In this document: positions 10,730 through 37,700 of the stretch, piece by piece
Layout: every line of letters starts with the position of its first letter
Numbering within the stretch: the first letter of the stretch is position 1
Assembly (NCBI GenBank): GCA_043228905.1
Contig: JBHGNT010000017.1
Span: forward strand, 10,788,001-10,852,000
Direction of reading: 5' to 3'
Origin: Azolla caroliniana
Taxonomy: Eukaryota > Plantae > Polypodiophyta
DNA length: 64,000 bases
Notes under the pieces: generated by a model
Database searches by the model: none
Told to the model about the DNA's origin: nothing
Seen by the model: the letters and a program-made list of their open reading frames with translations, nothing else
Position numbers and translations under genes: made by a program

Positions 10730-12910
10730 TAGTAAATTATAATATCTTTATGTAGAACATATATAACCTAATGGCTAGAGTTGAGGGCTCCTCCTTAGGA
10801 GGTCACCCTAAACCACATGGGGTTTCATCTACTCATGACACCATTGATGACGAGTTCCACAAGTCGTAATGCATGAATTGGGGCTCGGCTTATTTGGATA
10901 TTGATGATGCAATTTAGTTACCAGATCAGAGGCGTTGTCAAGGTTCTCGTCCGGTTACCATCTCCCTCCTTCGATGATGAGTTCCACGAGTTGTAATGCA
11001 TGAATTGGGGCTCGGCTGATTTGGATATTGATGATGAAATTCAACTACCAGATCGGAGGCGTTGTCAAGGTTCTCGGCCGGTTCCCAAGTATGATCATTA
11101 GGTGTATAACCTAACCAGTCCACGAGATAATAAAGCTTCTTACGTACTATCTTGGAGTCCAAAACAACTTTGACTTCGAATTCTGGGCCATCAACAAGTT
11201 GAACCGGAGGTGGGGGTAGAACTGGAATGGAACTAGCATTGTAAGGTTCCAACAATGAGACATGAAATACTGGGTGTAGATGCATGTGTGGGGGCAACAG
11301 ATCAAGGCAGAATGCAATAACATTGATTTGATGAGAGATAATAAATGGACCAAGCCGTTGATAATCCAACTTATCACAAGGTCTAGTGGTCTTCACATTA
11401 CGTCGTAATAGCCATACACGATCCCCGATTCGAAATTTTGGTTCCTCTAGTGAGGAGTAAAGATGATGATGATCTGCAGCCTTCTTGTTTGTGGCTTGAG
11501 CCATATGCAAATGGTGAGAAAGTGGAACATGAACTTCTTGGAGTTGGCGTAGATGGTTCTCAGCGGTAGGGTTTTTTGAGATTTTTGGATGTTTGATCAT
11601 CATCCAACGGGGATGATATCCTATTGAGGAATGACGCGAATTATTGTATGCAAACTCTACAAAGTGTAAAAAATCCACCCAATCATCCTGTTGATAATTG
11701 ATGAAACATCGAAGATATTGTTCTATAGTTTGATTTGTGCGCTCGGTTTGACCATCACTTTGTGGATGATAGCTTGAAGAAACTTTACAAGAGACTTTGA
11801 GCATCTCAAGCAAGTGTTTCCAGAATTTTGAGATGAATTGTGGGCCACGATCACTAATGATGTCATTTGGAAGACCATGAAGCCGAAATACTTCTTTCAT
11901 AATGATGTTTGCAGTTTCTTTATTGTTGTTAGTTTTCGTGCATGGAAGAAAATGCGCCATCTTTGTGAATCGATCTACTACAATTTCTTTACTGTTGAAT
12001 TGTGGGCCACGATCTCTAATGATGTCATTTGGAAGACCATGAAGCCGAAATACTTCTTTCATAATGATGTCTGCAGTTTCTTTATTGTTGATAGTTTTCG
12101 TGCATGGAAGAAAATGCGCCATCTTTGTGAATCGATCTACTACAGTGAGGATAGCATCAAAACTCTTTGAAAGTGGAAGATCTGTTATAAAGTCCACAGA
12201 GATGGATTTCCACGGACTAGTAGGAACTGGCAATGGATGAAATAACCCATATGGTCGATGTAACAGAATCTTTGACCGACAACACATGTCACAAGTACGA
12301 ACATAATCCTCAACAAACTCTTGAAGATGAGGCCACCAATAGTTTTGAGAAACTAGCTCCAAAGTTTTATGGATTCCGAAGTGACCAGCCATTGGGTTGT
12401 CATGACAATATTGCATTACTTGGAGTCGAGACGAACCATTGGGGACATACAAAAGAGTGTTATGAAAAAGTAACCCATTTTTCCATTGAAATTAGTTATA
12501 ATCTTTACAAGGATACTTGGATTTTGAAGAAGATGCACGATCTAAAATGATATGATTCAATACATCTTGAGCAAATTCATCAAAAATGATACCTATTCGG
12601 ATTGAATCAAGGAGCCTGGAATCTTTAGGTGCTTTAGAGGCATTAATAGTCAATAGCTGAAACCGATCAGGCCCTAGGATGACTTGCTTTTGATGATCAA
12701 ATGTGGGTTCACCTGGTTGTGGCGCCAAATAAGATCATCGTGATAGAGCGTCTGCCTTTCCTTGTTGTACTCCAGGGTGATAACTGATGAGGAAGTCAAA
12801 ACGCATCAGGAATTGTGCCCAACAAGCTTGGCGTCGACTCAAGACACTAGCATTTTGAATGTATGTGAGGTTTTTATGATCATTGTAAACAATGATTTGA
12901 TGGGGAGAAC
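10730..12910 (-). mobile_element. Tcn1-like chromovirus 3' fragment (RNase H end, integrase, chromodomain, 3' LTR start at 10840)
   Basis: ORF 10938-12452 has HHCC zinc, DFITDLP, SDRGPQF, DGQTERTNQ, a GPF module and a chromodomain (YLVDWLGY..TWEP). Confidence 0.92.
10938..12452 (-). pseudogene. Chromo-integrase with an in-frame 53-aa internal duplication
   Basis: The segment VVDRFTKMAHFLPC...DRGPQF occurs twice. Confidence 0.9.
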
Positions 12911-13951
12911 TGTTGAGAGACAAGCTCAACATTCGGTGCGTAAACCGGTGCGCAAACCAGTGCGCAACGAGAAGCCGTAGCGGTGCGTAAACCGAGAGGC
13001 CGTTGGAAAGATATTCTGCGTAGGAATATATTTTGGGAGTTAGTGTAGAGCTCAGTTATGAGCATTGAAGTACATGTCAGTACTTCTGTCAGTCCGTATG
13101 GACTTGTATAAAAGTGCTCACTAAGCACATTCTATGTTTGGACTGAGTATTATTTTTGAATTGAGTTGTGTGTGTTCCCTCTCTCACTCTGTCTCTCCCA
13201 CGTACTGTGTGCGTCCAAGCTCTCCATTAAACATGTGTTTTCCTACGTTCTTCTTTCTGTTGCTTCCACGCATTGTTCTTTTTACATGGTATCAGAGCGC
13301 GAGGGTTGAGAAGCTTTGCAGCCGACCTTAGCTCAAAGAAGAAAACATAACCTTCGTAAAGAACAGGAAAAACAAAGTGGATAGAGGCATCGCTAGCTCG
13401 CTTCGGACCGAGAAGCTCGATAGAAACAACTACGTGTCTTCGTCCTACAAGATGCACCAGTACCTGTTCGGGCATGGATACTAGAGCTATGTCGACGGAG
13501 TAAATGACACAACACCCGATTCGACACACAAAGACTTTCCGTCTTGGGAGCAGTCGCGAGCAGAGTTCTCTACTGCTTTGCGTCTTGTGTGGGCAAACAA
13601 CTTCTGAGCTATATTCGGGATGCTTCAGGAAATCTAAAAAAGATTTTTGCCGCAAGCACCACAGCTAGAAAGCTCCAACTCTAACAGGAGTTGAGCAACT
13701 TGCGACAACGCGATTTGTCGGTGGCTGATTACACCTCTAAGATTAAAGATATATGCGATTCCTTAGCCTCCATCGATGTGAACGTCGAGGAAGGCAAAAT
13801 GGTGCATATCTGTCTTGGGGGACTGGTGTCGACCTTCGGAGCGTTCCGAACTGCTGTGTGCACACGGGAGAATACGCCATCGTTTTTTGACCTACAATCG
13901 ATGCTCCTTATAGAGGAGAACCACGTGGGTGCATCGACGAGTACGCACACC

Positions 13952-14321
13952 TGTTGTATGTATGGCTGGACTAGCCGCAACACAGGTGTCTATCCGACAC
14001 TTCTCCAAAGGGGTGGTAGGGATAGGATGTTAATACACGCGTATGATAATTACACTTAAGCACAGACGAAGACAAGATCAATAAGCATAAGCAAAACTAT
14101 ATTAATTCTTCGTAACTTCATTACAAAACATCGGATCCTTTTATAGGCATCCGGCCAGATTACAATCGGTGCTCTTAGGCAACCGTTAACCGAAACCGAA
14201 TCGGTTCGGATCCGGATCGGTTACAACTACCGGATCCGTCCCTCCTAATAATTCTATTCCTATTTCTATATTTATCCGATCCGACCTTGCTTTCCCATTT
14301 GCCTTCTCTGACCGGTCAACA
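13952..14321 (-). repeat. 3' LTR of the gypsy element
   Basis: TG..CA direct repeat of 22076-22445. Confidence 0.97.
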
Positions 14322-14323
14322 CA

Positions 14324-14339
14324 TGGCACGCCCGTGGGA
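14324..14339 (+). promoter_or_regulatory. Inward-facing PBS-like site (tRNA-Arg(UCU)) at the position of the PPT
   Basis: TGGCACGCCCG-TGGGA lies 2 nt from the 3' LTR, and no purine tract is adjacent on the element's sense strand. Confidence 0.6.
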
Positions 14340-14371
14340 AAGTGCATTGCACTTCGAACCCACAGCCGGCT

Positions 14372-16099
14372 TCAGTCTTCCTCCAAAATATCCAGCAAAC
14401 TCCGCTCAGAGGTTTCAAGTGTTGTCTTGCCTGTGCCGTCTCCGACTTCCGATTGGATTGGCTGCCTTTTCGCATCTTGCTGCTCCGACTCTGCTTGTAC
14501 CGGTGGTACCGGTGTTTCTTCTGTATCCTGTCCGGGTCTGTCCTGCTCTACCTCCGTTCCGTTCCCGGTATCGCTCTCTCCGGTTTCCACTGGTTGTGTC
14601 CTTTCCTCCCCGGATTCGGTACTTTCCTGTCTCCACTCTGCATCATCCCCGGCATCAACCTGTTCTTGCTCCGGAAGTTCTTCCTCGGGTAATTCTTGTC
14701 GGGGTGCGTTGTCGGTTGGGTCCTCTTCAGCCGGTCGCTCACCCTCACTGATGGAGATCGGCGTTGTGTGTCCCTCGGCTTCCTGTCGCAGTCGGTCCTT
14801 CTCGTACCCTTCCAATTCTAGTTGGGTTTCGAGCTGCCCGTCATCCAACCTCTCTACTAACCCTCGGATTTCCTTGAGATGCTCTTCTGCTAGAGCATAG
14901 AAATCCTCCGACAGTTCTTCCCGGATGTTGACGATACTTTCTTCGTCCATTTTATAGAACCCATCTCCGGTTATCCTCCGATTTTCTGCATTAGCTCGGA
15001 GTGTCTGCAGTTCAGCTGCCTGTTGTGCCCATTCCCTCCAGAGCTTCTCCGTGCTTTCATTTATGCTGGCCTGAGCTCGGGTACTCCAACTTGACATGAT
15101 GAACTTAATTCGGCCAACCCCTGCTTTAGCCTGTTCCGAAGCTGCTTGTTTTTCCTTCCTTATCCGTTTGATGATGTCGGCCATTAACTGAGCTTGAGCT
15201 TCAGAGTCGGCTTTTTGCTTGTCACAGGTACTCCGCCATTTGTTGATTTCGAAAGTCGACTTCACTTTTTCCTCGTTCCTGCTCTTTGTCAGCTCCCCTA
15301 CTTTCTGCCGAAGTACTTCCATCTCCTTTCTTTGTTCCGACGTCAAGGTCTTCTCCGCCGATACTTCCTCCCTTGCTTTGGACAATTCCAAGCGGTTTTC
15401 CTTGAGCTGCTCTTTCAGCTTCTCTATCTGTCGGTCGTACATTGCTGCCTGATTCTTGATGTCCGACGTGGCCTGTTTATAATCCTTACATAGTCGGTCG
15501 AATTCCTCCGTCTTCTGTTTTAGGCGTCGGTTCGCCTGAGCTCGCAACCGATCATCCCGGTCCTTTTGTTGTCGGAGTTCCTCTCGCATCCGCTCGATTT
15601 CCTGCTCCATTCGTCGGCGCAGCCTATCTTTTTCCTTTTGCAGCGTCCCGTTTTCTTCTTGTAGTCGGTCATTGATGGCTTTGCTTCGGCGAAGGCCTTC
15701 CTCCATTCGCCGTCTGTCGTCTTCTACCAACTTCCGCTGCTCCCTTTCGTTATCTCTCAATGCCTCCTGAGCCTGTAATTCTTCTTTCAAAGTTGCTATT
15801 AACTTCGCGGTCTCAGGGCCGGTTTGCAAGGCCTTCTCCTTCTCCGTTTCTGGTTCGGCTTGCTTTTCTGATGTCTCGACCGGCTCGGTGCCATCTTGTG
15901 CTTGTCGGTTGCCTTCTTTTGCCTGTGCTAGCTCTTCTTGCAGCTCATGTAATTGTGCCCGGAGCATGACCATATCCTTAGTCGTCGTCCTAGTCACTTG
16001 TTCCCTTTGCTCCTCCTCTTTCTCCATTTGGCCCCCCACGTTCTGTGCTTTAAATAGCTCGTGCACCCGTGTGACGGTTGTAACTACTTCCTTCATCAT
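14372..16099 (-). CDS. Extra ORF (eORF), 575-aa coiled-coil protein with acidic tail, function unknown
   Basis: Uninterrupted E/K/R/Q-rich ORF between the pol stop and the 3' LTR, in sense orientation. No obvious transmembrane segment. Confidence 0.85.
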   Translation of the reverse strand: MMKEVVTTVTRVHELFKAQNVGGQMEKEEEQREQVTRTTTKDMVMLRAQLHELQEELAQAKEGNRQAQDGTEPVETSEKQAEPETEKEKALQTGPETAKLIATLKEELQAQEALRDNEREQRKLVEDDRRRMEEGLRRSKAINDRLQEENGTLQKEKDRLRRRMEQEIERMREELRQQKDRDDRLRAQANRRLKQKTEEFDRLCKDYKQATSDIKNQAAMYDRQIEKLKEQLKENRLELSKAREEVSAEKTLTSEQRKEMEVLRQKVGELTKSRNEEKVKSTFEINKWRSTCDKQKADSEAQAQLMADIIKRIRKEKQAASEQAKAGVGRIKFIMSSWSTRAQASINESTEKLWREWAQQAAELQTLRANAENRRITGDGFYKMDEESIVNIREELSEDFYALAEEHLKEIRGLVERLDDGQLETQLELEGYEKDRLRQEAEGHTTPISISEGERPAEEDPTDNAPRQELPEEELPEQEQVDAGDDAEWRQESTESGEERTQPVETGESDTGNGTEVEQDRPGQDTEETPVPPVQAESEQQDAKRQPIQSEVGDGTGKTTLETSERSLLDILEED

Positions 16100-16164
16100 T
16101 ACCTTGATTTTCTTGATCCTCTCTTTTATTGCTTTTCTTAATTATGATTTGCTTTTCTTTTCTT

Positions 16165-16195
<31 letters not shown>

Positions 16196-16287
16196 TCTCT
16201 TCTTGTCTTGAATTTCTAACCGTAGCACCACGTCATTTTTTTTTATTTTTTATTTTTTTTGTTTTTTATTTTCACCCATGTGCCGCA

Positions 16288-19200
16288 TCATTGTTCGGTT
16301 CCCCCCGATGTGTTCGGGTCGGTGCGTACTGTTGTCGGTTCCTCGTTGTTCCGCCTCGGTGTCGGCTCCTCGGTCCTCCGGATCTGTGTCGGTTCCTTGC
16401 CATTCAGGATGTCCGGGTCTTGCTTGAAGGGGTTAGCTGGCATGTGCCCCTTATACGGTTTTAGGCGAAACCCATTTGCCCATTTGCCCACAACTTCTCC
16501 TGACAACGTCCCGAGCTGGTAAGACCCATTGTACTCCTTTGTGATCCAGAATGGTCCGGTCCATCGAAATCGCAATTTCCCCGGCATGTTCCCCATCCGT
16601 GTCTGGAACAGCAATACTGGTTTCCCGACTTCGAATTCCTTTTCGTTACCCCGCAGGTGTCGGTCTACGAAGGCTTTCCTCCTCCTTTGCTCTAGTTCTA
16701 GCTGTAGCAGGCTGGCTATTCGATTTTCTTCCAGTTCCAACAGCATCGCCAGCCGGCTTCGTTCGAATTCCTTCTCGCTTAACCGCTCCTTAACCTGTAT
16801 TCTTAAGCTAGGAATTTGGAATTCTACTGGCATGACTGCTTCCAAGCCGAATGCCAGTCGGAACGGGGTCGTCCGGATGCTAGTCTTGTACGCCGTTCGG
16901 TACGCCCACAGCACGCTCTGCAACTTCGTGTCCCAGTCGGTCCGGTTCTCATTGACGATTTTTCTAAGGATGTTCTGTAGCGTTTTATTCGTTGATTCCG
17001 CTAATCCGTTGGCTTGAGGGTAGTAGGGAGTGCTTCGTTTGTGTACTACCGCATAGAATGATGTCAAACTTTCCACCACCTGCCCGAGGAAATGTCCTCC
17101 CTGGTCACTGATCAGCTCAATCGGGCATCCGTACCGACACCATATGCATTCGTATAAAAATTTGGCCGTGGACGCCGCCGTGTTGTCCCGTAATGCCTTT
17201 GCTTCTACCCATTTCGTGCAGTAGTCGGTAGCCACTATTATATACCGATTTCCGGTCCGCATTGCCGGTGGCTTGAATGGACCGACAAAGTCCAAGCCCC
17301 ACTTTTGGAATGGTTCTAATGGCAAGACTGGGTGATGTGGCATCCGGGCCTGCTCCGTGGGTTGGCCCAGTCGTTGACACAGGTCGCATTCCCTGCTATA
17401 CTTAACGGCATCTCTCATGGTAGTCGGCCACCATAGTCCGCTCTGCCATATCTTCCGGGCTGTTGTTTCGCCGGCATAATGCCCGCCTGCAATTCCACAG
17501 TGGGCTTCCCTCAGGATCAGATCCTTTTCATCGCTCCGCACTGCTCGCCTCCATACGCCATCTGCCCCCTTGTGATAGAGGGTGTCTCCTACCAAGCAGA
17601 AATGTCTGCTCCGTACTGCCATCCTTTTCCGTTCGTCTCGGTCCAGATTTTCCGGGGGAACTCCGGTGCTCAGGAACTGATGCATTTCGGTTAACCATTT
17701 GTCTTCGTCCGCTACTGTGGCCTCCGTTGCCGGTGCCGTCGTGACCCTAAACAGCTCGGCGTCGGGAAATTCGTCCTGTACGCCGTCCCCTGATTCTCCG
17801 GATTCTAGTCTGCTCAGGTAGTCTGCTACCGCATGCTGCACCCCGGGTCGGTGGAAAATGTCGAATTCGAATTCCTGTAATAGCAGCGTCCATCGTGCGA
17901 GTTTTCCTGTCAAGGCTGCCTTTGAGACCAGGTAGAGTAGTGCCGAGTGGTCAACGTGGAAGGAGAACTTTCGTCCGAGCAGATAGTGCCTGTACTTTGT
18001 GACACTGTACACCATTCCTAATGCCTCTCGTTCCGTTGTAGAGTAGTTCTGTTCGGCTTTCGAGAGTTTCCTGCTTGCGTAGTACACCGGCCGATACCAT
18101 TTCGGTTCCGTGAGTTGCATCAAAACGCTGCCGATTGCTACGTCCGACGCGTCGACGAAGACGTGAAAGCTTTTACTCCAGTCCGGCGGCTGCACCACCG
18201 GAGCTTGTGACAGCATGACCTTCAACGCTTGGTAGGCTTTCTCCTCCGTTTCTGTCCATTGGAAAGGTACTCTATGTACAGCAGCGTGCAATGGTGTAGC
18301 AAAGTCGGCAAGGTGCCGTATCATCCGACTATGCCACCTTATTTGACCAAGGAATCGGCTTAAAGCCTTTGCGTTATTCGGTGCCGGTGCGTCGAGAATT
18401 GCCTTTACTTTATCCGGATCTACCGCGATTCCTTCCCGACTCACCACGTGCCCTAACAAGTTGCCGCTTGCGACTCCAAAGACGCACTTAGCCGGGTTCA
18501 GACTTAATCGGTACTCGCGGCACTTTTCTAAGCATAGTCGTAGGTGATCGAGATGCTCTCCGTGTCGGCTGTAGACGGCGAAATCGTCTAGGAAGACCTG
18601 CATAAAACCGGGAATAAAATCCCCGAAGATTTCCATAATTATCCTTTGAAATGTTGCAGGGGCTGTCTTTAATCCGAACATCATCACGACCGCGACGAAC
18701 ACTCCCCATTCCGTCACGAACGTTGTTTTCTCTTGGTCGGCCGAGTTCATTCGGATTTGGTTGTAGCCGCTGAATCCATCCAGGAAGCTGTAAACTTCGT
18801 GGCCGGCCACCGCATCTAGCACGCCGTCCGTGAATGGTAGTGGAAAAGCGTCGGTCACTGTCGCGGCATTTAGTTTTCTGTAGTCCACACATACCCGGAT
18901 TTTGCCGTTCTTTTTCGGGACCACCACTATCGGGCTCAGCCAGGTTGCCTGCTTGACTGGTCGGATAAATCCGACCCGGAGAAGCTTGTCAATTTCCTCC
19001 TTCACCTTTGCCGCATAGTTTGGATTCATCCGGTACCGGCGTTGAGCGATGGGTTTCGCGTCAGTACTTAGATGAATTTGGTGCTGGTAGAGCTGGGGGT
19101 CCAGCCCTCGCATGTCTTCGTATGACCATGCGAACACGTCCTTGAAATCCGTTAATAGTGCTACCATTGCCTGTTTTTCCTCCTTCGGCAATTCCTTCGC

Positions 19201-22024
19201 GACTTTTACTGGTCGGGGTTGTTCTGTTGTGCCGAGGTCCACCTCTTCCAGCTGGGATGCTTTCACCCTTTGGGATATCGTCATTTCTCTTTCTAGGGCT
19301 TCCTGTGCTTGGCGTAGTTCCCGGATCGCCGCTTTGTCCGGCTCGTCCGGCATTGTGATGTACGGCTCTACTGCTGCCGTGATATCCACCTCAAAAAGTG
19401 GGACGATCTGTGGGTGTTCCTCGAGGTACCGGTCAACTTCCTCATCCGGTAAGCCCTCCAACATGTTGATGCTTTCGGCATATAAAGGGGTTGCCTCCTT
19501 GCTAGTGAGCACCCGTGGTTGCGTGGCTACCCGTACCTTTGTTTTCCCTCGTCAGAACGTGATCATATTCTTTTGCCAGTTTTGCTTGATATGCGCCGTT
19601 CGCAGCCATGGTCGTCCTAACAGTAGGGGATATGTGCCTTGTTCATTCAGCTCTAGTACCACGGCCGATATCCGGAATACGTGGCCTCCTATCGTTACTT
19701 CCAAGTCCCGGATAAGACCGGTTGGTCGGACTGAGCTTGTATCCGCCATGCGTAACCAGAAGGGGCATGGTTCCCACTCCTGGATGCCTAGGTCGTCGCA
19801 TGTCTGTCGACTGATGACGTTCACCCCGGAGCCTCCGTCAATAATTGTTCCTGGAATCTCCTTTCCTTTGACGATTGTCGTGATTGCTGGGCTACTGGTA
19901 TCGACCACCGCTGGGCCTTCCTCCGGGTTGGAGAAAAATGCCGGTGCTGGCGTCGACGTCGGTTTGCTCACGGCGGCTTGTAAGTCTGCTGTAAACCGCG
20001 GCACCAACTGCAGTAACCGTGCCAACAGCAGCACGATCTGACAATCTTGTAATGCTTGCCATGTCGGGTTTTCTCCTGGCTATACGATTTCCTCATCCTT
20101 TGGCATATTTTGGTCTCTTACTTCCGCCGCACCTTGTTCGTTGGCTTCTTTGATCCATTGTGCCGCTTGTTTTCTGATTGCTTCCTGGGCTTCCCATTCG
20201 GCGGCCTTCCCCTTCGACCGCGTGGTAACCTGCTGTACTTCGGCTGTCACCATGTTGACTGCCGGCTGCTTGTCGGTTGTTTTGCTTGGGCATTGATTAC
20301 TGTAATGCCCCTCTTTTCGGCAGTAATAACAGTACACCCTGTGCGTGTTGCTGGATTCTCCTTTTTCCCCTGTTTGGGGAAGGGGCATTCCCCGGCGGTT
20401 GTCCTCGGTTTGTCGGTTCTCCGGTGCCGCTATTGGTTTGTCATTCCTTGCTGCCTCCCGACGCTCCTCTCTACGGAAGAATCCACGCCTTTGGTTCCGT
20501 CGGAAATTCCGGTTCCCTGGCCGCCTTTCTTCTCTGCGTCGCTCGTATTCCAGGGATTCGTCTCGGTCGTACCGGTCCCGGGGGTAGCTATCCCTGCGGT
20601 TCTCCTCTCGGTCATAGCTGTCGCGTCTTCTATCGGGGTATCTGTCGCCGCGTTCTCGTCGGTAGCGGTCGTCCCTCCGGAATCAATCCTCTTCCGGGTC
20701 CCGGTTGCGCGGTTCTATGTGTCGGACTGGTGCCGCTTGTCGAGTTAACAGGTTATACTCGCATCGGTTCGTTGTGTGGGCGCGAGAATTGCATATCATG
20801 CACTGTGCACGCAGGGTGCAGTCGACGGTCGAGTGCCCCGAATTTAGGCATGTTGTGCATTGTAGGGCTTGTCGGAACCGGAGGTCCTCCTCCTTCGGAA
20901 GCGCCTGGTGTAACGCCCCCATCGGCAAGAAGGGGCTCGTCTTGTCCATTTCCAGGACCCGATCAATGACTTGGTCCATTGTGCTGGTGCTGAAATCGAG
21001 GATTCCACACATCGCTCGAAGTGGCTCTTTCAACGCAGCCAAAAAGACTGCTTTGGCCTCCTCTTCGGGTGGTGCTCTTGCTAATTGACTGTGCAAGGTC
21101 TGGAAACGAATGATAAATTGTGGGACCGTCTCGTTTTCTCCCTGCCGGGTGGTGTAGAATTGTCCGACCAATTCCCTTTGTTCCACTCGTCTATGAAACA
21201 GGCGTAAAAACTGGGTTTTCAATGCCTCGAACGTGGCGAAGCTGCCTGGTAAGTGCTTTGCGTGCCACCGGGCCGCCGGTCCTTCTAATGTCATGCCGAA
21301 TTCGGCGACTTTGGATCGGTCGGCCTCGGGCTCCGTCAGTCTCTGGGACACGTGGTTGGCTTCCCATGTTCGCAGGAATGCATACACATGTGCCTCTCCG
21401 TCGGGCTCATCCCGATACTTTGGGTACGGATACGGCATCGTGTCGTCCCACTGATTCTCCTGCGCTGGTTCCTCCGAAGTCAGTATCCGCTCCTGCGGTT
21501 CCTCCGCAGGTGGTGTTGGTATCCGCTCCTGCGGTTCCTCCGCGGGTGGTGTTGATAACCGCTCCTGCGGTTCCTCCGCGGGTGGTGTTGGTATCCGCTC
21601 CTCCCTCCTCGGCGATTGCCGGTCACCGAACTCCAGAGTTATTTCCTCCTCTGGCTCCGATGTTGCTGAGTAATCCGACTCAAAGGGGTTGTTCTCGTGG
21701 CTGCTTTTATAACGGGATCCCACGCTTTCCCCGCTATCCGAATCCGCCTCTAATGTTGCAAATGCCGCTGCGTCCCCGTCGCCGCCGACGAGAGTCTGTA
21801 GTAGTGTCTCCGCTTCTTGGAGGCTAGTTATGCTACTGCCTTCGTCGGAAGCTTGTAGAACCTGGAACTGCAGTGCTTCTTCTGCGATTTGCCGAAGCGT
21901 TTTGGAGAATGACCGATCGCGCCGGATCTCGTCGACGGCTTGCTGCAGGGCTTCCCGTCGTCGCTGCCGTTCGGCGTGGCGTCTCCCTCTTTCGGTGATG
22001 TGGTCGTTATTTTGTCTAGACATC
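16288..22024 (-). pseudogene. Single-frame gag-pol (gag, zinc knuckles, protease, RT, RNase H, integrase) broken by three in-frame stops
   Basis: ORFs 20683-22107, 20080-20388, 19552-20034 and 16288-19512 share one frame. Motifs are CYYCRKEGHYSNQC, IIDGGSG, FLDD, DAS, WGLDFVGP, SDQG and NGLAES. The RT-RH-INT part (1074 aa) is open. Confidence 0.93.
21484..21600 (-). repeat. 36-bp coding tandem repeat (ERIPTPPAEEPQ, about 3 copies) in the gag N-terminus
   Basis: Visible in both DNA and translation. Confidence 0.9.
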
Positions 22025-22058
22025 CATCCCCCGGTTGTCCTCTGCACTCTGCAGGAAT

Positions 22059-22069
22059 CATGGTCGCCA
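22059..22069 (-). promoter_or_regulatory. PBS, tRNA-Arg-like (TGGCGACCATG)
   Basis: Lies 6 nt inside the 5' LTR and resembles the complement of plant tRNA-Arg ends ..GTGGTCG-CCA (recalled). Confidence 0.6.
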
Positions 22070-22075
22070 AAATAG

Positions 22076-22445
22076 TGTTGTATGTATGGCTGGACTAGCC
22101 GCAACACAGGTGTCTATCCGACACTTCTCCAAAGGGGTGGTAGGGATAGGATGTTAATACACGCGTATGATAATTACACTTAAGCACAGACGAAGACAAG
22201 ATCAATAAGCATAAGCAAAACTATATTAATTCTTCGTAACTTCATTACAAAACATCGGATCCTTTTATAGGCATCCGGCCAGATTACAATCGGTGCTCTT
22301 AGGCAACCGTTAACCGAAACTGAATCGGTTCGGATCCGGATCGGTTACAACTACCGGATCCGTCCCTCCTAATAATTCTATTCCTATTTCTATATTTATC
22401 CGATCCGACCTTGCTTTCCCATTTGCCTTCTCTGACCGGTCAACA
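22076..22445 (-). repeat. 5' LTR of the gypsy element
   Basis: Direct repeat of 13952-14321. Confidence 0.97.
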
Positions 22446-24521
22446 ACACCGATAGCAAGATGATGTACATGGAGGGAGATAGGCCCCGTGGTCGTGGTGG
22501 ACGAGGTGAGTCGGTGTACAATGGAGGCGGCCAAAGGAAGAAGACACCGAAGTGATGCCCACAACAATTTCGGACCCTCTGGAAACAGGGGGAGTCAAGG
22601 CAATGAGAACCGGCAAGTGAAACCCGTCGCAGATTGTTGGTATTATGGGAAGAAAGGCCACAAGGAGAGTGAGTGTTGGAAGAAGCGCGCCGATTCAGAG
22701 AAAACCGGATCAGGATCCGAACAAACCGACAAAGGAAATCGGCAGCGATCACACTACGCCAAAGGATCCGAAAATGTTGGAAAGGGGGCAACCTTTGTGA
22801 CGAGACACGAGGCGAACTCGATGAAGAAGACCACCCCGAAATCGGACAAGGTGTGGTACGTTGACTCCGGCGCGTCAAACCACATGACGAGCCATATAGA
22901 GTGGTTCTCATACCTTGAGAAACCGATGCAATAGAAGACTACACTTCGCATCCGATCGAGAATGTCGTTGAAGTTCCCCTGAGCCATGTCAAGCAAAAAG
23001 GGAAACTCATGAACGTGTTACACGTCCTGACAATCACGAAGAATCTGGGGATGCAAGTTTGGTTCACGCATCTCGGGTGCTTCATCGAGGAGGAAGGCCA
23101 AGTTATTGCGTAAGGGCACAAAGATGGGAGGATATTTATCCTCGACACCAATGACGTTGGCATCGCAATGTTCGCAAAAGGACAAAAAGTCGAGTCGGAT
23201 ATCGACTTGTGGCACAAGCAGATAGGCCACATCAATTATCAAAGGCTTCAGGACTTGCAATCTAAACAAGTTGTGTTCAGATTGCCCAAATTCGGTGGCC
23301 GGAAGGCCCCAATTTGTGAAGCCTGCCAGCTAGGGAAGCAACACCAACTTCCTTTCCCCAACAAGCGTAATTGAAGCCGGAACAAGCTCGACTTGATACA
23401 CTCGGATGTATGGGGGGCGACACAGAACGTTATTCTTGGCGGAAGTCAATATTTTGTCTCCTTCATCGACGACTACACGCAGCACACATGGACCTATCTC
23501 ATTGAAAAGAAGAGTGAAGTCTTCGACTATTTCCGGGACCTCAAAAGCTTCATAGAAAGGGAAACAGGGAGAAAGATCAAGTGTCTGCGGTCGGATGGCA
23601 GAAAAGAGTACTTTTCCGCCTAATTCAACGTTTATCTGCAACAAATGGGAATTTAGCGCGAATTCAGTTACAGGTATACACCGAAGCAAAAAGGAAAAAT
23701 CGGTCGGTTGTGGAAGTAGCGCGGGCAATGCTCGAAGAAAAGAGCTTGCTCAAGTTCTATTGGGCCAAAGTGGTACGAACCACGGTCTACATCCAGAATT
23801 GGACCAGAGACAAAGTGTCAGTGCATGAGCTGTATTTCGGAAGGAAGCTGAATCTACTACACTTGAGAGTTTGTGGTAGCATTACGTATGTGCATGTGCT
23901 GAAGGAGAAACGGAGGAAGTTGGACACGAAATCCAAGAAGTGTATCTTGGTCGACTATTCGGACGAACAGAAGGGTTATAAGTGTTATAACCCCCGAACC
24001 AAACAAGCTCGCGTGAGCCGCAATGTTGTGTTTGAAGAGTCCGCATCCTGGTACTTGCCTCCGACTCCGGACCTCAACTTCAACTCCGAACCTCCGGACC
24101 CGAGTTTTGACAATGAGGTCAGCGAGGCTGAAATGCCTCTAGATGACCGCGAAATCGAGACCCTCAATGAGAGTCCGATTTCATTTCAGCTAAGTGGACC
24201 GAATGAGCAACTAGGTCAGTTTGACCAGTCCGAAGACGAACCGACGAGTAGTGGAGACTTGGTCGAGGAAGCCGAGGAGACAGTTTACGCACAAGGAAAA
24301 AGGGAAGAAGAAGATGCCGGAGTATGACAAGGACAAGGGTGAGTCAGATTGACGCGAATCCGACTCTGAGGAGAGCGATGACGGGCCTTCGAGAGTGAAG
24401 TCCACGTCAGCCAAGAAAGCCCCAACATCGGCTAATGAGAAATTATGTCGATCTACTCGCCAGATGAACCTTGTTGTGTGGTTCATATACAACGAAGCAC
24501 ATGGTGCATCACTATGCATAC

Positions 24522-29300: not shown

Positions 29301-29601
29301 TCGTGCTTCAGTCGATGTTGCTCGTGGAGGAAAATCACGCTGGTACGTCAACGAGTATGCACACCGACAACAAGATGTTATACACGTAGGAAGATAGGCC
29401 CCATGGTCATGGCGTGTCGAATACAAGTGTATAATGGACGTATTCACACTATCCCTTTCTATAGATCAAGTTTGGGCCATTTGTGTAATTAGCATAAATG
29501 GTAGTTGCCCTAAGTCGATCACTATATATAGTGACCTTGTAACCTTTTTGTAAGGTTGGGTTGTATTATTGTTTCTATTGAATAGAAAGAGTATTTTGTG
29601 C

Positions 29602-29642
<41 letters not shown>

Positions 29643-30424
29643 ACGATCTCAGAAACTGTCATACGCAGGTACTCAACCAGAATCGAATGCTACTTGATCT
29701 TCCGCATTGACGGCCTTGTCTACAACATTTGGTATCAGAGCCTGCACAGTATTCGGTCCTTCAACCCGCTATCGGCCGTCGTCTCAGCCTGCACAGCATT
29801 CGGTTTCTTGCGTCATTCGAAGAAGAGAGAAGAAGAAGAAAAACGAGGCTTGCATCTCATCGCGTTAGATCATCTTCGCCTAGAGTAAGCCAGCCGGTTG
29901 TACTCTGTTCCTTGTGATCGTAACCGCTCGAGGTGAAATCCCCTTGTGCAACATTGACACGATCGTGCTCCACTCGGTTAAACGGCATCCGAAGAGGTCA
30001 TCAAACGCTGCTCGCCACTCATTGTAACCACTCGGTGCAGATCGGTCTCAAGACAACAACCCAAATTCGTGCTTCATCCGGCTGATCGACATTCGGGAGG
30101 ATCAGTTGGATCCGTCTCTCTCGTCGCTGCAGTCACCCGAAGCAGAATCGGTCCAGACAATCGGTTTCAATAATCGGTATTTGGCATATATATTCGGAAG
30201 CGAACCGGGCTCACTCCGACTCGGCAACATTCGGGAAGACCAGTCGGTTCTGTCCCTCAAGTCACCGGAGTCAATTCGAGCAAGTTCAACAATACATATA
30301 TCCGAAGCCGAACCGACTCGGGTTCAAATCCGACTAGAACGATATCGGGTGAGCCAACCAGCTGCACTCCAACAAGGTTCGTAGTCAACTCCGAACCGAG
30401 CTTCGTCAACCGAAACCAAATTTG

Positions 30425-31164
30425 ATGGCATCAACATCCGGCTCGTCAGAAATGAGTCTACGAAAGTTCGATGGATCGAACTTCAACTTCTGGAAGGAGC
30501 AAACGCGCCACGATTCGGATGCACCTATCGGAATCGGTATACTTTACGGTGCAATCGTGTACGACAGCATTCGAACTGTGGAAAACACTGTCGGACACCT
30601 ACGAAAAGAAGGTCGCTGCGACGAAGATGTTTCTGATCCGGCGCCTCTACAACTTGCGGATGAAAGAATCAGATTCGGTTCAAGCACATCTCAATGAGTA
30701 CGAAAGCATAAGCTCCCAAATCTCATCTCAGGGGACGGCAATCGAGGATGAACTCAGAGCAATGATACTCATGAGCAGCCTTCCCTCATCATGGGAAACT
30801 TTCGTCACAACCGTGTGCAACGCACGCGTCAACCACGGCTGTTAAATACTCCGAAGTCACGAGCGCAATCCTGACCGAAGCAGCTCGGAGAAAGTCTTTC
30901 GCCAAAGACTCAACAGACGACGCTTATGTAGTACAAGGTTCGACAGAACGATCGAACATACGAGGAAGAGATTCCTCACGGCAGCCGAACAATCAGCGAA
31001 GACGGAGCCAGTCACGGGATAATCGAATCTGCAACTATTGCAAGAAACCCTGACACATCAAAGCCGACTGCCGCGCACTCAAGAACAAGAACGACAAGTC
31101 TCAGAAATCAGACAAGAAGAGTGGCCGGCATGAGGAGATCAATTACGTCAGCTTCTCAGCTGAT
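30425..31164 (+). pseudogene. Disrupted copia gag
   Basis: MASTSGSS..FDGSNFNFWKEQ jumps by deletion and frameshift to RATIRMHLSES. A second frameshift lies near 30825, and the knuckle contains TGA (CNYCKKP*HIKADC). Confidence 0.85.
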
Positions 31165-34100
31165 GTGCTACCAAACGACCCGAATATACTATCAATCGAA
31201 AATCCAGTCGGATCAGAAGTTCTGCTCACGACTGAAGAATCGAGCACATGGCTCTTAGATTCGGGCGCGTCATTTCACGTGACTCCTCATCGATCCCAAT
31301 TTCGGCAATATACGATCCGTCACTCCGACTCAGTTCGAGTCGGCAACTCGCAACACTGTGACATCATTGGAATCGGCACAGTAGAGCTCAACCTTACAGG
31401 TGGCTCTACACTTGTACTTCACAATGTCCGACATGTACCCGAGCTCTCAAGGCCATTGATCTCAGTCGGACAACTAGATGAAGACGGCATTCGTGCCGGT
31501 TTTTCTTCGGGAGGGTGGACACTCCACAGGGGGAACCTCCTGCTTGCTAGAGGACCCAAGATACACTCACTGTATCCGTTACATGTTACGCTCAGAGAGG
31601 GTAACCTATTTTTGGTGGATATTCCTGTGTCATCACTATGGCACAGAAGATTAGGACACCTCAGCAAGGCCGGCATTACGCACCTATCTAGAGCCGAATA
31701 CATCCCTAAACTCTCCTTCTCGGACCATCAATTCTGCGAACATTGCCAGTATGGCAAACAAGCAGCCACATCACACCCGACTTCAGCACCAAGAGAAACG
31801 AGACCTCTCGATTTAGTCCACTCGGACGTCTGTGGCCCAATGCCACATCAGTCTCTCGGCGGTGCCTCTTACTTCGTCGGTTTTATTGACGATTCGACTC
31901 GAAAGGTGTGGGCTTATCCAATTCGCACCAAAGATCGTGTTTTCTCGATCTTCTCCGATTGGCTCGCTATGGTAGAAAATCAAACTGACCGAAAACTGAA
32001 ATGCCTTCGGACCGACAATGGGGGAGAGTTCAAATCAGAAAAATTCGTCAAATTCTGCCGACAACGCGGCATCCGACGTGAATTTACGGCACCACACAGT
32101 CCGGAGCAAAACGGGATTGCAGAACGCATGAATCGGACAATCCAAGAACGGATAGTTTCCATGCTCCAACACTCCGGACTGTCGGATGGCTTCTGGGCAG
32201 AGGCTCTACTCACGGCAGTACACATAATCAATATGTCGCCAAGCAGACCTCTAGGACTTCAAATTCCTCAGGAACTATGGATCGGCAGTAAGCCAAATTA
32301 CGACAAGCTGAGGATCTTCGGATGCGAGGCGTACGCCCTTATTCCGAAAGATGATCGCCGAAAACTTGCACCTCGGTCCAGGAAATGCATTTTCCTTGGA
32401 TATGGATCAGACGGCGAAATGGGATACCGACTCTGGGACCCCGAACGCAGACAAATCGTTCGAAGTTCGGACGTTGTGTTCAACGAGTCGGCTATGAATC
32501 CATCCGTCGAAAAACCGATCGAAGTCCGAAGGGTAACATTTTCCGATGTGCCGACCCTTCAAGAAGGCCCCGCTCTTAACACACGGTCAGCTTCACGGGT
32601 AGCTGAACCTTACACCACCGACTCGGACAACTCTGACTCGGCACAGCAGAATAATTCGCTTTCGGACCATCCGACCTCGATACCCGATGCAACCAGTCCA
32701 ATTATACCTCGACGATCCGAGAGACTGTCGCAACCTCCGGAGAGGTATTCTCCTGGAATTTTCTTCACCGACGCCGGCGAACCGACGTCTTACGAAGAAG
32801 CATCGACATCTGTCGATTCAGCCACCTGGCATCTGGCGATGGAGTCGGAAATGCACTCCATTCGGGCAAACAAGACTTGGGATCTGGTCGAACTACCTAA
32901 GAATCGACGTGCTCTTCCTTGCAAGTGGGTTTATCGACTAAAAGAGACGTCTGATTCGACCACCCCAAAGTACAAGGCCAGATTAGTTGCGAAGGGCTTC
33001 CGACAAGAATATGGCGTCGACTTCGACGAGATTTTTTCACCAGTGGTGAAAATGACAACCCTTCGTTTTTTACTCGGCGTAGTGGCAGCCGACAACTTGG
33101 AGCTGATTCAGCTAGATGTCAAAACAGCCTTCCTCCATGGTGATCTTGAAGAGGAAATTTATATGGAGCAGCCAAAAGGCTTCGTGGCAACTGGCCAAGA
33201 ACATCTAGTCTGCCGACTCAGGAAGAGTCTATACGGCCTCAAACAGGCACCGCGACAATGGTACAAGAAGTTCGACGACTTCATCCAATCGATCGGCTTC
33301 TCCAAAAGCGATGAGGACCATTGTCTTTTTACCAACACAGCTCAAGATGGATCACCCATCTTCCTCATCATTTACGTGGACGACATGCTAATTTCTGGAC
33401 GCCACGCGGGCGAACTTGCCGATCTCATTCGGCAACTGCGGTTGAAGTTTGCCATGAAGGACCTCGGTCCGGCACGACACATACTTGGCATGAAGATTAG
33501 TCGGCATCGCGATAAACGACATCTTTTTTTGTCTCAGACCGACTATATCGGACGTGTCTTGGAACGCTTCAACATGCAATCAGCCAAATCTGCTTCAACC
33601 CCGCTCCCCATGAATCTTCGGCTCTCTCAGCGAGACTGCCCGACATCCGGACCGGAGGGGGAAGATATGAAGTCGGTACCGTATGCACCGGCAGTCGGCT
33701 CCCTTATGTACCTGATGGTCGCGACACGGCCTGATATCTCTCATGCCGTAGGAGTCGTTAGCAGATTTATGCACAATCCTGGCCGATCGCATTGGAACGC
33801 AGTCAAGCATGTGTTCAAATATCTGGCTGGCACAAAAGATCACGGCATTCTTTTCGGTCCGAACTCAACCTCAGGCGTAGTCGGTTACACCGACTCGGAC
33901 TTCGCCGGCTGTATAGACAGTCGGAAATCAACAACCGGATACTGCTTCAAATTCGGCAATGGAACAATTTCGTGGAAGTCGAAACTTCAGGAGTGCACAG
34001 CGACCTCAACGACCGAAGCAGAATATGTAGCTGCGTCCGACGCTGCAAAAGAAGCTTTGTGGCTCGGCCGGCTGGCGCACACGTTTCGGCAAGTCGACCA

Positions 34101-34356
34101 TGACTCGGCTCCAGTTGTCTATAGCGACAGTCAAGGTGCTGTTGCCTTGTCGAGAAATCCGGTTCACCACAACGCCTCCAAACATATCGACGTTCGATAT
34201 CACTTCGTTCGGGACTGCGTCATTTCAGGGAAAATCGGTCTAGAGAAAATATCCACAACCGACAATGTCGCAGATGGAATGACCAAGTGTCTTTCGGCAG
34301 ACCGCTTTCGGTCCCTTCGGCATCAGATGGGCGTAACGACAAACCAGTCCGGTTAG
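31165..34356 (+). CDS. copia Pol (protease, GAG-pre-integrase, integrase, RT, RNase H), open frame
   Basis: WLLDSGAS, LWHRRLGH, VHSDVCGP, RTDNGGEF, NGIAER, YVDDML, YTDSD, KHIDVRYHF. Confidence 0.95.
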   Translation: MLPNDPNILSIENPVGSEVLLTTEESSTWLLDSGASFHVTPHRSQFRQYTIRHSDSVRVGNSQHCDIIGIGTVELNLTGGSTLVLHNVRHVPELSRPLISVGQLDEDGIRAGFSSGGWTLHRGNLLLARGPKIHSLYPLHVTLREGNLFLVDIPVSSLWHRRLGHLSKAGITHLSRAEYIPKLSFSDHQFCEHCQYGKQAATSHPTSAPRETRPLDLVHSDVCGPMPHQSLGGASYFVGFIDDSTRKVWAYPIRTKDRVFSIFSDWLAMVENQTDRKLKCLRTDNGGEFKSEKFVKFCRQRGIRREFTAPHSPEQNGIAERMNRTIQERIVSMLQHSGLSDGFWAEALLTAVHIINMSPSRPLGLQIPQELWIGSKPNYDKLRIFGCEAYALIPKDDRRKLAPRSRKCIFLGYGSDGEMGYRLWDPERRQIVRSSDVVFNESAMNPSVEKPIEVRRVTFSDVPTLQEGPALNTRSASRVAEPYTTDSDNSDSAQQNNSLSDHPTSIPDATSPIIPRRSERLSQPPERYSPGIFFTDAGEPTSYEEASTSVDSATWHLAMESEMHSIRANKTWDLVELPKNRRALPCKWVYRLKETSDSTTPKYKARLVAKGFRQEYGVDFDEIFSPVVKMTTLRFLLGVVAADNLELIQLDVKTAFLHGDLEEEIYMEQPKGFVATGQEHLVCRLRKSLYGLKQAPRQWYKKFDDFIQSIGFSKSDEDHCLFTNTAQDGSPIFLIIYVDDMLISGRHAGELADLIRQLRLKFAMKDLGPARHILGMKISRHRDKRHLFLSQTDYIGRVLERFNMQSAKSASTPLPMNLRLSQRDCPTSGPEGEDMKSVPYAPAVGSLMYLMVATRPDISHAVGVVSRFMHNPGRSHWNAVKHVFKYLAGTKDHGILFGPNSTSGVVGYTDSDFAGCIDSRKSTTGYCFKFGNGTISWKSKLQECTATSTTEAEYVAASDAAKEALWLGRLAHTFRQVDHDSAPVVYSDSQGAVALSRNPVHHNASKHIDVRYHFVRDCVISGKIGLEKISTTDNVADGMTKCLSADRFRSLRHQMGVTTNQSG

Positions 34357-34736
34357 AGCCGGACACAGCGCAAGATGGTTTCAGACAACCGACATCAGTT
34401 CCCTAATGATCGGCTTCAACTCTTCCGACCCGACCAGTCCGGTCTTCTGCCTTCGGACCCTGCCGACTCGAACAAAACTGATATGTCCGAGAACCTAGGT
34501 TTATACCTGTAATCTTAGATAACCCATGTATACGCCCATTACGGGGGAGTGTCGAATACAAGTGTATAATGGACGTATTCACACTATCCCTTTCTATAGA
34601 TCAAGTTTGGGCCATTTGTGTAATTAGCATAAATGGTAGTTGCCCTAAGTCGGTCACTATATATAGTGACCTTGTAACCTTTTTGTAAGGTTGGGTTGTA
34701 TTATTGTTTCTATTGAATAGAAAGAGTATTTTGTGC

Positions 34737-34784
<48 letters not shown>

Positions 34785-37700
34785 TGCACGATCTCAGAAA
34801 CTGTCATACGCAGGTACTCAACCAGAATCGAATGCTACTTGATCTTCCGCATTGACGGCCTTGTCTACAACATGGCGGACGAGGCGAATCGACGCTCAAT
34901 GGAGGCGGCCGAAAAGAGCAGAATGTGCAGCATAATCAAAATGTCGGAAGCAATTATGAATCCTCCGGAAGTAGGGGGACCCATAGCCGTGCCGGAAGCT
35001 GGCAAGAGAAGGTTGTGATGGAATGCTGGTACTGTGGCAAGAAGGGCCACAGGAAGAGCGAGTGCTGGAAGAAGCGAAACGATTCAGACAAAGCAGAATC
35101 GAGCGGAAGAGATGCAGGAAGTAGTCAGAAATCGCACTATGCCAAAGGCTTTGAATGAGCCGTAAATTGATCGGGCCCAACCTTTGTAATGAAGCACAAG
35201 ACCAATTCAATGGTCGTGGACACCTCAAAATCGAGCGAGGTGTGGTATGTTGAATTCAGGAGCATCAAATCATATGACGACGAGTCATGAGGAATGGTTC
35301 TCATACTTGGAGAAACAGGAAAAACAAGGAGTGGTTGAAACAGGAGACGACACTCCGCATACCATCGAACATGTCGGAGAAGTTCCTCTCAGCCATGTCG
35401 AGCTGAAAGGGAAGCTTATAAACGTGTTGTACATCTTGACAATAACCAAGAACCTAGTGTTGGTCCGTTAGATCGTCGACCAGGGGATGCAAGTTTGATT
35501 CACGCACCTCAGGTGCTACATCAAAGAGAAAGGGCAAGTTATAGTGCAAGTGTGCCGTGGAGGGAGGATGTTCATCCTCGACACCAATCAAGCCGGAACC
35601 CTGCACTGTTCGCTAGAGGACAGAAGGTCGTGTCGGAGATCGATCTGTGGCACAAGCGGTTCGGCCATGTTAACTTCCCATGGTTGCATGAAATGCAGAC
35701 GAAGAACATTGTTTTCGGCTTGCCGAAATTTCGGGGCTGTAATGGCCAAGTCTGTGAAGCCTGCCAACTCGGGAAGCACCATCGACTTCCATTCACCAAT
35801 GAGTGTAATCGGAGTCAATATCCGCTAGATTTGATCCATTCGGATGTGTGGGGACCGACACAAAACGTGAGTCTTGGTAGAAGTTGTTACTTCGTAACCT
35901 TCATCGATGACTTCACTCGGCATACCTAGGCGTGCTTGATCGCAAAAAAGAGCGAAGTCTTCGTGTGGTTCCTGAAGGTGACAAACCTTGCGAAAGGGAA
36001 ACATGGCATAGGATCAAGTGCTTATGGTTTGATGGCGGTAAGGAGTACTTCTCTGACCAGTTCACGAGTTATCTACAGAAGGAGGGAATTCGACGCGAAT
36101 TCTCAGGTAGATATACGTCGGAGCAAAACGGCGTAGCCAAACGGAAGAATCGGACAATTAAAGAAGCGGCCAGGGAGATGCTTGAAGAGAAGCATATGCC
36201 AGGGCAATGCTTGAGGGGTTGGGCCAAAATGGTCAACCAAATGAAGAGCCGGCGAGTAGTGGAAACTCGGCCGTGTTGTCCCCGCGTAAAGAACCGAGGA
36301 GAAAGTTCACGCGTAAAGAAAAAGGGAAGAACAAAATGTCAGAATACGATTTCGGTAGTGCCGAGTTAGATCAGAGCGAATTTGACTTCCGGCCAATCGA
36401 GAAGGAAACTCCACGGAAGGGGTCAAAATTGACCGAAAACGTCGTGGAATCGGGTAATCATGAGTAATCATGAATTATTCCAATCTACCTACCTGACAAA
36501 GCTTGTAAAGAGGTATGGGTACAATGAATACATGTCGCACCATTACACATACATGACACGAGTGGCAGAAGAGCATGAGCCATAGAGCTACGCAGAAGCG
36601 GTGGAAGAGGCAAACTGGCGTACCGCGATGGAGGAAGAGATGTGTGCATTATTGGACAATGAGACTTGGGGGACCTGCTTGACGCACCGAAGGGTGTAAA
36701 GCTGATCGGATGTAGATGGGTGTATAAGTGAAATACAATACCGACGGCTCCGTCAATCGATATAAGGCCCGTTTGGTTGCGAAAGGCTACACGCAAAAGC
36801 ATGGTGTCAATTACGACGAGACCTTCGCTCCTGTCGCGAAGATGACTACCGTGCGAGTTTTGCTAGCTGTAGCTGCAGCGAAGGGGTGGGATCTACATCA
36901 GATGGATGTAAAGAATGTGTTCCTACAAGGTGATCTTGAGGAACAAGTGTACATGGTATAGCCCCCCGGTTTTCTATCCGAACGGAACACTTTGATAGTT
37001 TATTGATTGATGAAGTCATTATACAGCCTTAAGCAAGCCCCACGACCTTGGAACGTGAAGATTATGCAACAGTTGCGTAGAATGGGGTTTACAATGTCCA
37101 AATCAGACTCCTCGTTGTTCGTTCAGCAAGGTCGACATGGACCGGTTTGTCTCTTACTTTATGTTGATGCTTTAGTCATCGCCGGTGCCGATCAGGAAGA
37201 AAACGGCCGTGTAAAGTCTCTGCTTGTGGCATCGTTTGAAATGAAGGATCTTGGTGACCTTCATTACTTCCTCAGGATCGAAGCGATTCGTTCCCCTGAA
37301 GGCATATTGATCAGTTTGCGTCATTAAGTGCTGAATATGCTCTTCAAGTTAGGCATGGCAGATTGTAAGCCCATCTCGACCCCTATGGATAGAAACCTAA
37401 AGCTTCGCCAAGATTCGGGAAAGGTGTGCGACCCGACACAGTTTTGACAAATTGTCAGAAGCCTCATCTGCTTGACGATCACTCGGCCGAACCTCAACTA
37501 TCCGGTCGGAATGATTAGTCAATTTATGTCACAGCCCATGACCGAACACTTCAGTGCGCACAAAGGATATTACGATATGTCAGCGGCACAAAAGACATGG
37601 CGTTGTTGTCTCGTGTAGACATAGTCGAGCAGTTAGTCGGCTACACGGATGCTGATTAGGCTGGAAATGCCCACGATCATAGATCCACATCCGGATACGC

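Follow-up and report, generated by a model that had tools for sequence, protein, structure and literature searches.

A reversed, split tRNA-Arg site replaces the polypurine tract in a clade of Ty3/gypsy retrotransposons, probably from non-seed plants, and may prime the plus strand

A young LTR retrotransposon from Azolla caroliniana has no polypurine tract (PPT) next to its 3' LTR. A split site for tRNA-Arg is found in its place, and this replacement is lineage-wide. We propose that a clade of elements from non-seed plants has lost the PPT and begins its two cDNA strands from two different host tRNA-Arg, with the second tRNA on a split site whose hairpin is looped out at m1A58; we consider this account fairly probable. 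In our judgment, it is probable that plus-strand synthesis is primed by a host tRNA, whether on cDNA or on antisense RNA. More cautiously, and from sequence comparison, we favor the version in which host tRNA-Arg would anneal to the minus-strand cDNA and prime the plus strand there.

The window (the whole stretch of A. caroliniana DNA that was analyzed, 64,000 nt) contains this element at 13952-22445, where it occupies 8,494 bp. The original prediction described a young element on the minus strand, and this was borne out: the two LTRs are identical at 369 of 370 positions (one mismatch), the target site duplication (TSD) is ACACC, a TATA-like sequence (TATAAAA) lies inside the 3' LTR (14139-14145, minus strand), and all of the ORFs are on the minus strand. 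The main parts of the element are as follows.

13947-13951, no strand assigned: left copy of the TSD, ACACC
13952-14321, minus strand: 3' LTR, 370 bp, TG...CA
14372-16141, minus strand: extra 3' ORF in sense orientation, 589 aa from stop to stop, ending 8 nt from the cassette described below
16288-19551, minus strand: RT-RNase H-integrase, open, with catalytic motifs present
19552-22023, minus strand: Gag with zinc knuckle, and protease, in a frame shared with pol
22076-22445, minus strand: 5' LTR, 370 bp
22446-22450, no strand assigned: right copy of the TSD, ACACC

The domain order (Gag-PR-RT-RH-INT) is as in Ty3/gypsy, and the RNase H motifs are intact. No aRH and no chromodomain were found in the focal pol by a domain scan that detects a chromodomain in another element of the window. 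By its predicted polyprotein, the element is a non-chromovirus Ty3/gypsy. The product of the extra ORF (14372-16141) is probably a coiled-coil protein; no Pfam family scored above the cut-off, and there was just a sub-threshold match to DUF4200. The tail of this ORF has a homologue in a relative, L005. An A-rich spacer (16142-16287) lies between the extra ORF and pol, and another relative (L086) has a long unrelated extension fused to pol in place of the extra ORF. In U3, there is a cluster of short palindromic GGATCC/AACCG repeats (14180-14240 and the matching part of the 5' LTR), which is also present in L005.

The gag-pol frame of the focal copy has in-frame stops at 20683-20685, 20080-20082, and 19552-19554. 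We rejected stop-codon readthrough: a 91% sibling (P0001) is open at all three positions, and another sequence (P0002) is open at the two that it spans. Because there are three stops despite LTRs that differ at 1 of 370 sites, the focal copy probably moved in trans or descended from an already defective parent.

An older Copia (13287-13951 and 22446-24327, with a PBS at 13287) carries the element within its gag region. Elsewhere in the window are the chromodomain-bearing Gypsy integrase of another element (10938-12491, minus strand), two tandem arrays (46040-46768 and 53213-53428, whose repeat units measure about 146 nt and 24 nt), and a young Copia (29414-34873) with near-identical LTRs, a 1100-aa pol ORF (31054-34356), and a PBS at 29730 that we take to be of the Met type. 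The young Copia has a normal PPT and serves as a control within the same host.

In Ty3 and HIV-1, the PPT starts the plus strand, and this start fixes the U3 end for integration (excerpts of PMC5371799 and PMC2665208). The focal element, as had been noticed at the outset, has no purine run at its 3' LTR: read in the sense of the element, the 15 nt that precede this LTR contain no more than 3 consecutive purines, and the nearest run of at least 11 purines is about 290 nt off. The plus strand of the window, which for this element is the minus-strand cDNA, reads the CA of the LTR, another CA, and then TGGCACGCCCGTGGGA, in agreement with the reversed tRNA site that was originally predicted at 14324-14339. 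The parts of this cassette are as follows.

14322-14323, plus strand: gap of 2 nt between the LTR and the reversed site; a 2-nt extension is predicted at the U3 end of the cDNA
14324-14339, plus strand: reversed PBS at the position of the PPT, complement of the 3' end of tRNA-Arg(UCU)
14340-14354, plus strand: hairpin, with a core stem of 14342-14345 paired with 14349-14352, sitting between the complements of tRNA positions 59 and 58
14354-14363, plus strand: T-arm complement TCGAACCCAC, tRNA positions 49-58 (5' side of the T-arm and the T-loop)

The reversed PBS (14324-14339) is complementary to the tRNA over 10 nt without error, skips tRNA base 66, and then continues for 6 nt more. If 60 tRNA ends are assumed, the chance of a 10-nt match to a tRNA end at one of 6 offsets is about 3e-4. 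The cassette extends beyond what was first described, as the match to the tRNA resumes after the hairpin and runs into the T-arm (14354-14363); this 10-nt T-arm complement has its single occurrence in the 64-kb window here. No tRNA was found in the window by ARAGORN or Rfam, and the cassette has no tRNA match in Rfam at E values up to 10. This copy is young and has a clean TSD, which shows that correct ends can form without a PPT.

To see how widely the cassette is shared, we aligned contigs from 4 runs (four organism labels and three studies, with 24 runs listed) to positions 14296-14385; this alignment captures contigs that are at least 80% alike. The number of contigs aligned per run was 349, 428, 177, and 173. 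Among these contigs, positions 14296-14345 are free of indels and of variants at 1% or more in all 4 runs, and variants that reach 1% are found only at 14346, 14350, 14353, and 14355, which are in or just behind the hairpin. Over the site, the summed depth reaches maxima of 246,627, 77,446, 46,472, and 35,736 in the four runs (depth is not copy number). For the same runs, the values toward the LTR are 10,274, 600, 0, and 3,573, and those on the inner side are 9,234, 2,232, 2,494, and 2,385. The depth at the site is at least 10-fold that of either flank, and the flanks diverge on both sides. Loose ends of the contigs begin just outside the block on both sides, mostly with low agreement (among the rows listed, 24 of 115), and so the contig sequences indicate that the cassette is common to many families. 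One boundary of the conserved block is the region of 14363. Behind it, as judged by eye in the sense of the element, the inner loose ends close an acidic ORF tail that resembles the extra ORF; this argues that they belong to 3' sites rather than to ordinary 5' PBSs. A single X7 contig spans 14317-14662 with 7 differences.

To place the element among its relatives, an alignment of Pol picked 80, 1, and 56 loci from three collections, and those of at least 4 kb were screened for LTR pairs. The start of the 3' LTR could be placed in 12 loci and in 2 elements of the window; the remaining loci are without an LTR pair. From the scoring of junctions we dropped L021, L026, L068, L110, L127, and L135, which are truncated or not LTRs, and L118, which is of the same family as L116. 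The junction of the 3' end, the LTR, and the PBS is visible in L005 and L015. A quick maximum-likelihood tree was built from 60 RT-RH rows (L009, L018, L045, L133, P0005, P0065, and P0069 were excluded as too short); in it, the window element, L005, and L086 fall in one clade of 12 rows with SH-aLRT support of 99; ends were seen for 3 of these 12 rows. The clade is nested in a group with Riccia proteins and is apart from the Athila-like and Tat-like rows of seed plants. Among named proteins, those nearest to the element come from Adiantum nelumboides (46-57%) and Riccia (46-53%), and these similarities by themselves make a non-seed plant the probable host.

All three of the clade members with a visible 3' junction (the window element, L005, and L086) lack a PPT; the 11 comparators all have one, with runs of 6-11 purines. 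The comparators include the young Copia of the window and L015, which is the nearest outgroup with a visible end (47% Pol identity). L005 has 85% Pol identity, and its cassette is present with a double change in the hairpin stem, CTA for CCA, and one extra base that lengthens the self-stem and interrupts the match to the T-arm. The TATA-like box of L005 has the same sense as that of the window element. L086 is more distant (59-62% Pol identity), and its 1.67-kb LTRs are unrelated to those of the window element. Its 5' end reads CA-CT-TGGCGACTCCGCTGGGGA, a PBS resembling that of L056, and its 3' end, reversed, reads CA-CT-TGGCACACCTGGTGGAG, then a different, longer hairpin, and then AACCC. At the 3' site of L086, acceptor-stem positions are changed, and the TGG, the 2-nt gap (also present in L005), a hairpin after 17 nt, and the AACCC are kept. 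tRNA pattern searches with the two sites of L086 gave no matches. The contig that carries L086 (G001:C10) joins a eukaryotic LTR element to bacterial ABC-transporter genes; it has no TSD, appears to be a chimeric MAG contig, and is probably an assembly chimera. Many other matches in genome contigs look like eukaryotic contamination.

These comparisons upheld the ideas that the motif is conserved across family copies and relatives, being common to many families, L005, and L086; that it consistently replaces the PPT; and, as a check of relatives, that the site recurs with other tRNA-like letters (in L086). Because the cassette is found in many families and in relatives whose Pol is 85% and about 60% identical, whereas the comparators keep a PPT, it is a lineage feature and not an accident. 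It is extremely improbable that the site merely reflects an inverted internal region or a copy of a primer end inserted by a faulty strand jump, given its presence in many families under four organism labels as well as in L005 and L086, the agreement between LTR polarity and ORFs, and a tRNA end that differs from that of the element's own 5' PBS. Inversion of the internal region was rejected, as LTR polarity matches the ORFs in both the window element and L005. An inverted primer copy made by a faulty strand jump is plausible as the origin of the site.

The ordinary primer site at the 5' end has two parts.

22057-22069, minus strand: ordinary 5' PBS, tRNA-Arg type, with a tRNA end that differs from that of the 3' site
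22070-22075, minus strand: gap of 6 nt between the 5' LTR and the PBS

This PBS had been placed inside the 5' LTR, but TGGCGACCATG is actually internal, 6 nt inward of the LTR, and the PPT-bearing relative L015 likewise has 6 nt between its 5' LTR and PBS. A human PBS is assigned to tRNA-Arg in the available part of PMC11905727; it agrees with L005 at 12 of 12 nt and with the window element at 11 of 12 nt, and this is a comparison with a human tRNA site rather than with the host tRNA. A tRNA pattern search with the 5' PBS of the window element and L005 gave 9 matches, and none of the 9 is a tRNA gene. Because the 5' PBS corresponds to a different tRNA end, the 3' site is not copied from the element's own primer. 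The original prediction also paired the TGCA..TGCA hairpins of the two sites, and this did not hold up: position 14346 differs in 84-95% of the contig depth in all 4 runs, L005 keeps no more than part of the 5' hairpin, and the 5' hairpin folds no better than shuffles (z of 0.15). The likeness of the two hairpins is incidental.

As a stand-in for the host tRNA, we used L149, a prophage tRNA-Arg(UCU) (298-391 on the minus strand, 94 nt, with a long variable arm). It was found with a pattern made from the two outer pieces of the cassette, which has one matching locus in viral contigs, and ARAGORN calls this locus tRNA-Arg(UCU). Against L149, the hairpin loops out exactly between tRNA positions 59 and 58, and T-arm pairing then resumes. 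This break is at the limit of the 18-nt PBS, which is set by m1A58 (PMC11251516, in excerpt), and extra pairing with the T-arm is described for the HIV-1 PAS and for Ty1/Ty3 (excerpts of PMC11251516 and PMC5371799). Cofolding with the 3' 29 nt of the stand-in gives a three-way junction at -55.2 kcal/mol, and 0 of 200 shuffles were as low. The cofold shows geometry only, because it uses RNA parameters and a phage tRNA and because the tRNA was picked by a pattern from the same site. The putative isotype, tRNA-Arg(UCU), is based on this prophage tRNA and on Tat-type PBSs: the 3' site has the same start as the ordinary forward PBS of the Tat-type loci L030, L031, and L070. The T-arm extension is absent from L030 and L070. 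Four exact 16-mer matches in viral contigs were dismissed as chance, and the cassette is absent from them. The sole tRNA on a contig that bears a retroelement (G002:C103) is a tRNA-Gln.

In the mechanism that we favor, one tRNA-Arg would prime the minus strand at the 5' PBS in the usual way. After the first strand transfer, RT would copy the cassette and RNase H would clear the RNA. The cDNA would fold with its first 10 nt single-stranded, and the CCA end of tRNA-Arg(UCU) would dock there and invade the stem, so that tRNA positions 76-60 and 58-49 pair and the hairpin loops out at m1A58. RT would then extend the CCA end, so that the plus strand begins 2 nt ahead of the LTR, RNase H would remove the primer, and integrase would trim the 2 nt.

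The polarity and position of the site are exactly those of a plus-strand primer: in the window element, L086, and L005 alike, 2 nt separate the CCA end from the LTR. A tRNA acting in trans is favored for four reasons. First, the site in L086 varies in the manner of a tRNA. Second, the site breaks at 59/58, the m1A58 limit. Third, the insertion would spoil the T-loop of a mimic. Fourth, in the predicted fold of the cDNA, the unpaired first 10 nt are just the 10 perfectly matched bases. Against it, intact RNase H should attack the tRNA-DNA hybrid. HIV-1 RT cuts, and poorly extends, non-PPT RNA primers on DNA (PMC2665208, in excerpt); as the RNase H motifs of the focal element are intact, its enzyme would need adaptation. 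Other points against a tRNA in trans are the CTA for CCA in L005, the greater stability of the sense RNA (-22.6 kcal/mol versus -14.8 for the antisense), hairpins that are not significant against shuffles (as DNA, the 3' hairpins fold no better, with z of -0.6 to -1.8), and L086, whose site matched no tRNA and whose apparently chimeric contig has no TSD.

The more stable T-stem-like hairpin of the sense RNA would also suit a primer in cis: the element's own tRNA-like RNA, ending in CCA, would fold, survive RNase H or a tRNA-processing cut, and be extended. The primer would end at the same place, a second tRNA would not need to be packaged, and L005 lengthens the T-stem-like stem. However, such an RNA would be a poor tRNA mimic, as its T-loop carries an insertion and its acceptor lacks a base, and its last 10 nt would form a normal RNA/DNA hybrid that RNase H could attack. 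A cis primer also leaves unexplained why L086 varies as if toward another tRNA and why the site breaks at 59/58. The variation among contigs bears on this as well. At 14350, C>T reaches 6-49% of depth with no partner change among variants at 1% or more, and therefore a wobble pair is kept on the cDNA/antisense strand only; if truly unpartnered, this variant breaks the sense-strand stem. We view a primer in cis as possible but unlikely.

The G-U wobble at 14344/14350 suits RNA, which brings up a different template. The site could be a true PBS on an antisense RNA, where tRNA-Arg would prime a plus-sense strong-stop DNA, and this product would go on to pair with the minus-strand cDNA. RNA is the normal template of RT, the RNase H problem would be avoided, and the evidence for complementarity to a tRNA fits equally well. 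But this scheme requires a conserved antisense LTR promoter and the packaging of two RNAs together, and the TATA-like box is sense-only in both the window element and L005. We consider it quite unlikely.

Another thought is that the site has some other job, such as packaging or dimerization, acting as a sponge for tRNA fragments, or marking the cDNA end, while the plus strand starts from an unrecognized non-purine fragment. HIV-1 with a randomized PPT does still replicate weakly (PMC2665208, in excerpt). This is hard to square with the 2-nt distance between CCA end and LTR that all 3 clade members seen have in common, or with loss of the PPT exactly where the reversed site occurs, and we judge it to be very unlikely.

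If host tRNA-Arg does prime the plus strand on cDNA, this would be a way of priming the plus strand that is new among LTR retroelements. A successful and recently active clade without a PPT would demonstrate that the second primer is replaceable, and it would offer a natural system for asking what makes the PPT special. Its RT would be able to extend, on DNA, the kind of RNA primer that HIV-1 RT destroys, and the element would rely twice over on the tRNAs of its host, as well as on 3' tRNA fragments. Software that uses the PBS and PPT to filter elements or to assign their orientation may overlook members of this clade or report them in the wrong orientation.

Our literature searches, which covered sources other than subscription journals, Repbase entries, and bioRxiv supplements, found no description of a reversed PBS that replaces the PPT, and the available parts of PMC6317226, PMC11963269, PMC10886601, PMC10085805, and PMC10275265 describe no such site. 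The element misses at least one defining feature of each of Athila, Tat, Phygy, and Selgy. Like Athila (non-chromovirus|OTA in PMC6317226), it has no aRH, a 5-bp TSD, and a size within 7-23 kb, and it shares the lack of a chromodomain and the extra 3' ORF that excerpts of the same paper give for Athila. In contrast, the PBS of Athila is mainly for tRNA-Asp or Asn, and that of the focal element is of the tRNA-Arg type. The Athila-like loci in our collections have a PPT and form a separate clade, with these labels inferred from the PBS and the lack of aRH in a tree without REXdb references. Tat, Ogre, and Retand have tRNA-Arg primer sites, as does the focal element (PMC6317226), and tRNA-Arg is among the main primers of Ogre and Retand (Additional file 5 of PMC6317226). 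However, these elements have aRH and a PPT (PMC6317226, in excerpt) and are in a separate clade, and the focal element has neither aRH nor a PPT. Also, L030 and L056 have an insertion before the integrase, and the window element and L086 are without it. Phygy (4-bp NCGN TSD, tRNA-Trp PBS, and no extra ORF) fits the focal element in none of these features, and Selgy (4-bp TSD, tRNA-Ala PBS, and about 5 kb) does not fit it either (PMC6317226).

Helenus TRIMs likewise carry tRNA-derived sequence in an LTR element, but there, in the excerpted text of PMC10886601, the LTR itself contains the tRNA sequence, which acts as a Pol III promoter, and both PBS and PPT are retained. Canonical replication of LTR elements, as in Ty3 and HIV-1, likewise uses a tRNA-primed minus strand, LTRs, RT-RNase H-integrase, and a plus-strand start that defines U3 (excerpts of PMC5371799 and PMC10886601). 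The canonical plus-strand primer in these sources is a purine tract that is encoded by the element and resistant to RNase H; here a tRNA-end site is found instead. The closest parallel is in the PBS of Ty3/Ty1 and the PAS of HIV-1, where the acceptor end and the T-arm of one tRNA likewise pair with two separate segments (excerpts of PMC5371799 and PMC11251516), and in Ty3 one segment of the PBS is near the 3' end, as here (PMC5371799, in excerpt). In Ty3, Ty1, and HIV-1 as described there, it is the genomic RNA that carries the segments complementary to the tRNA, and they function in minus-strand synthesis. In the elements described here, the polarity is opposite, the tRNA of the 3' site differs from that of the 5' site, and the PPT is absent.
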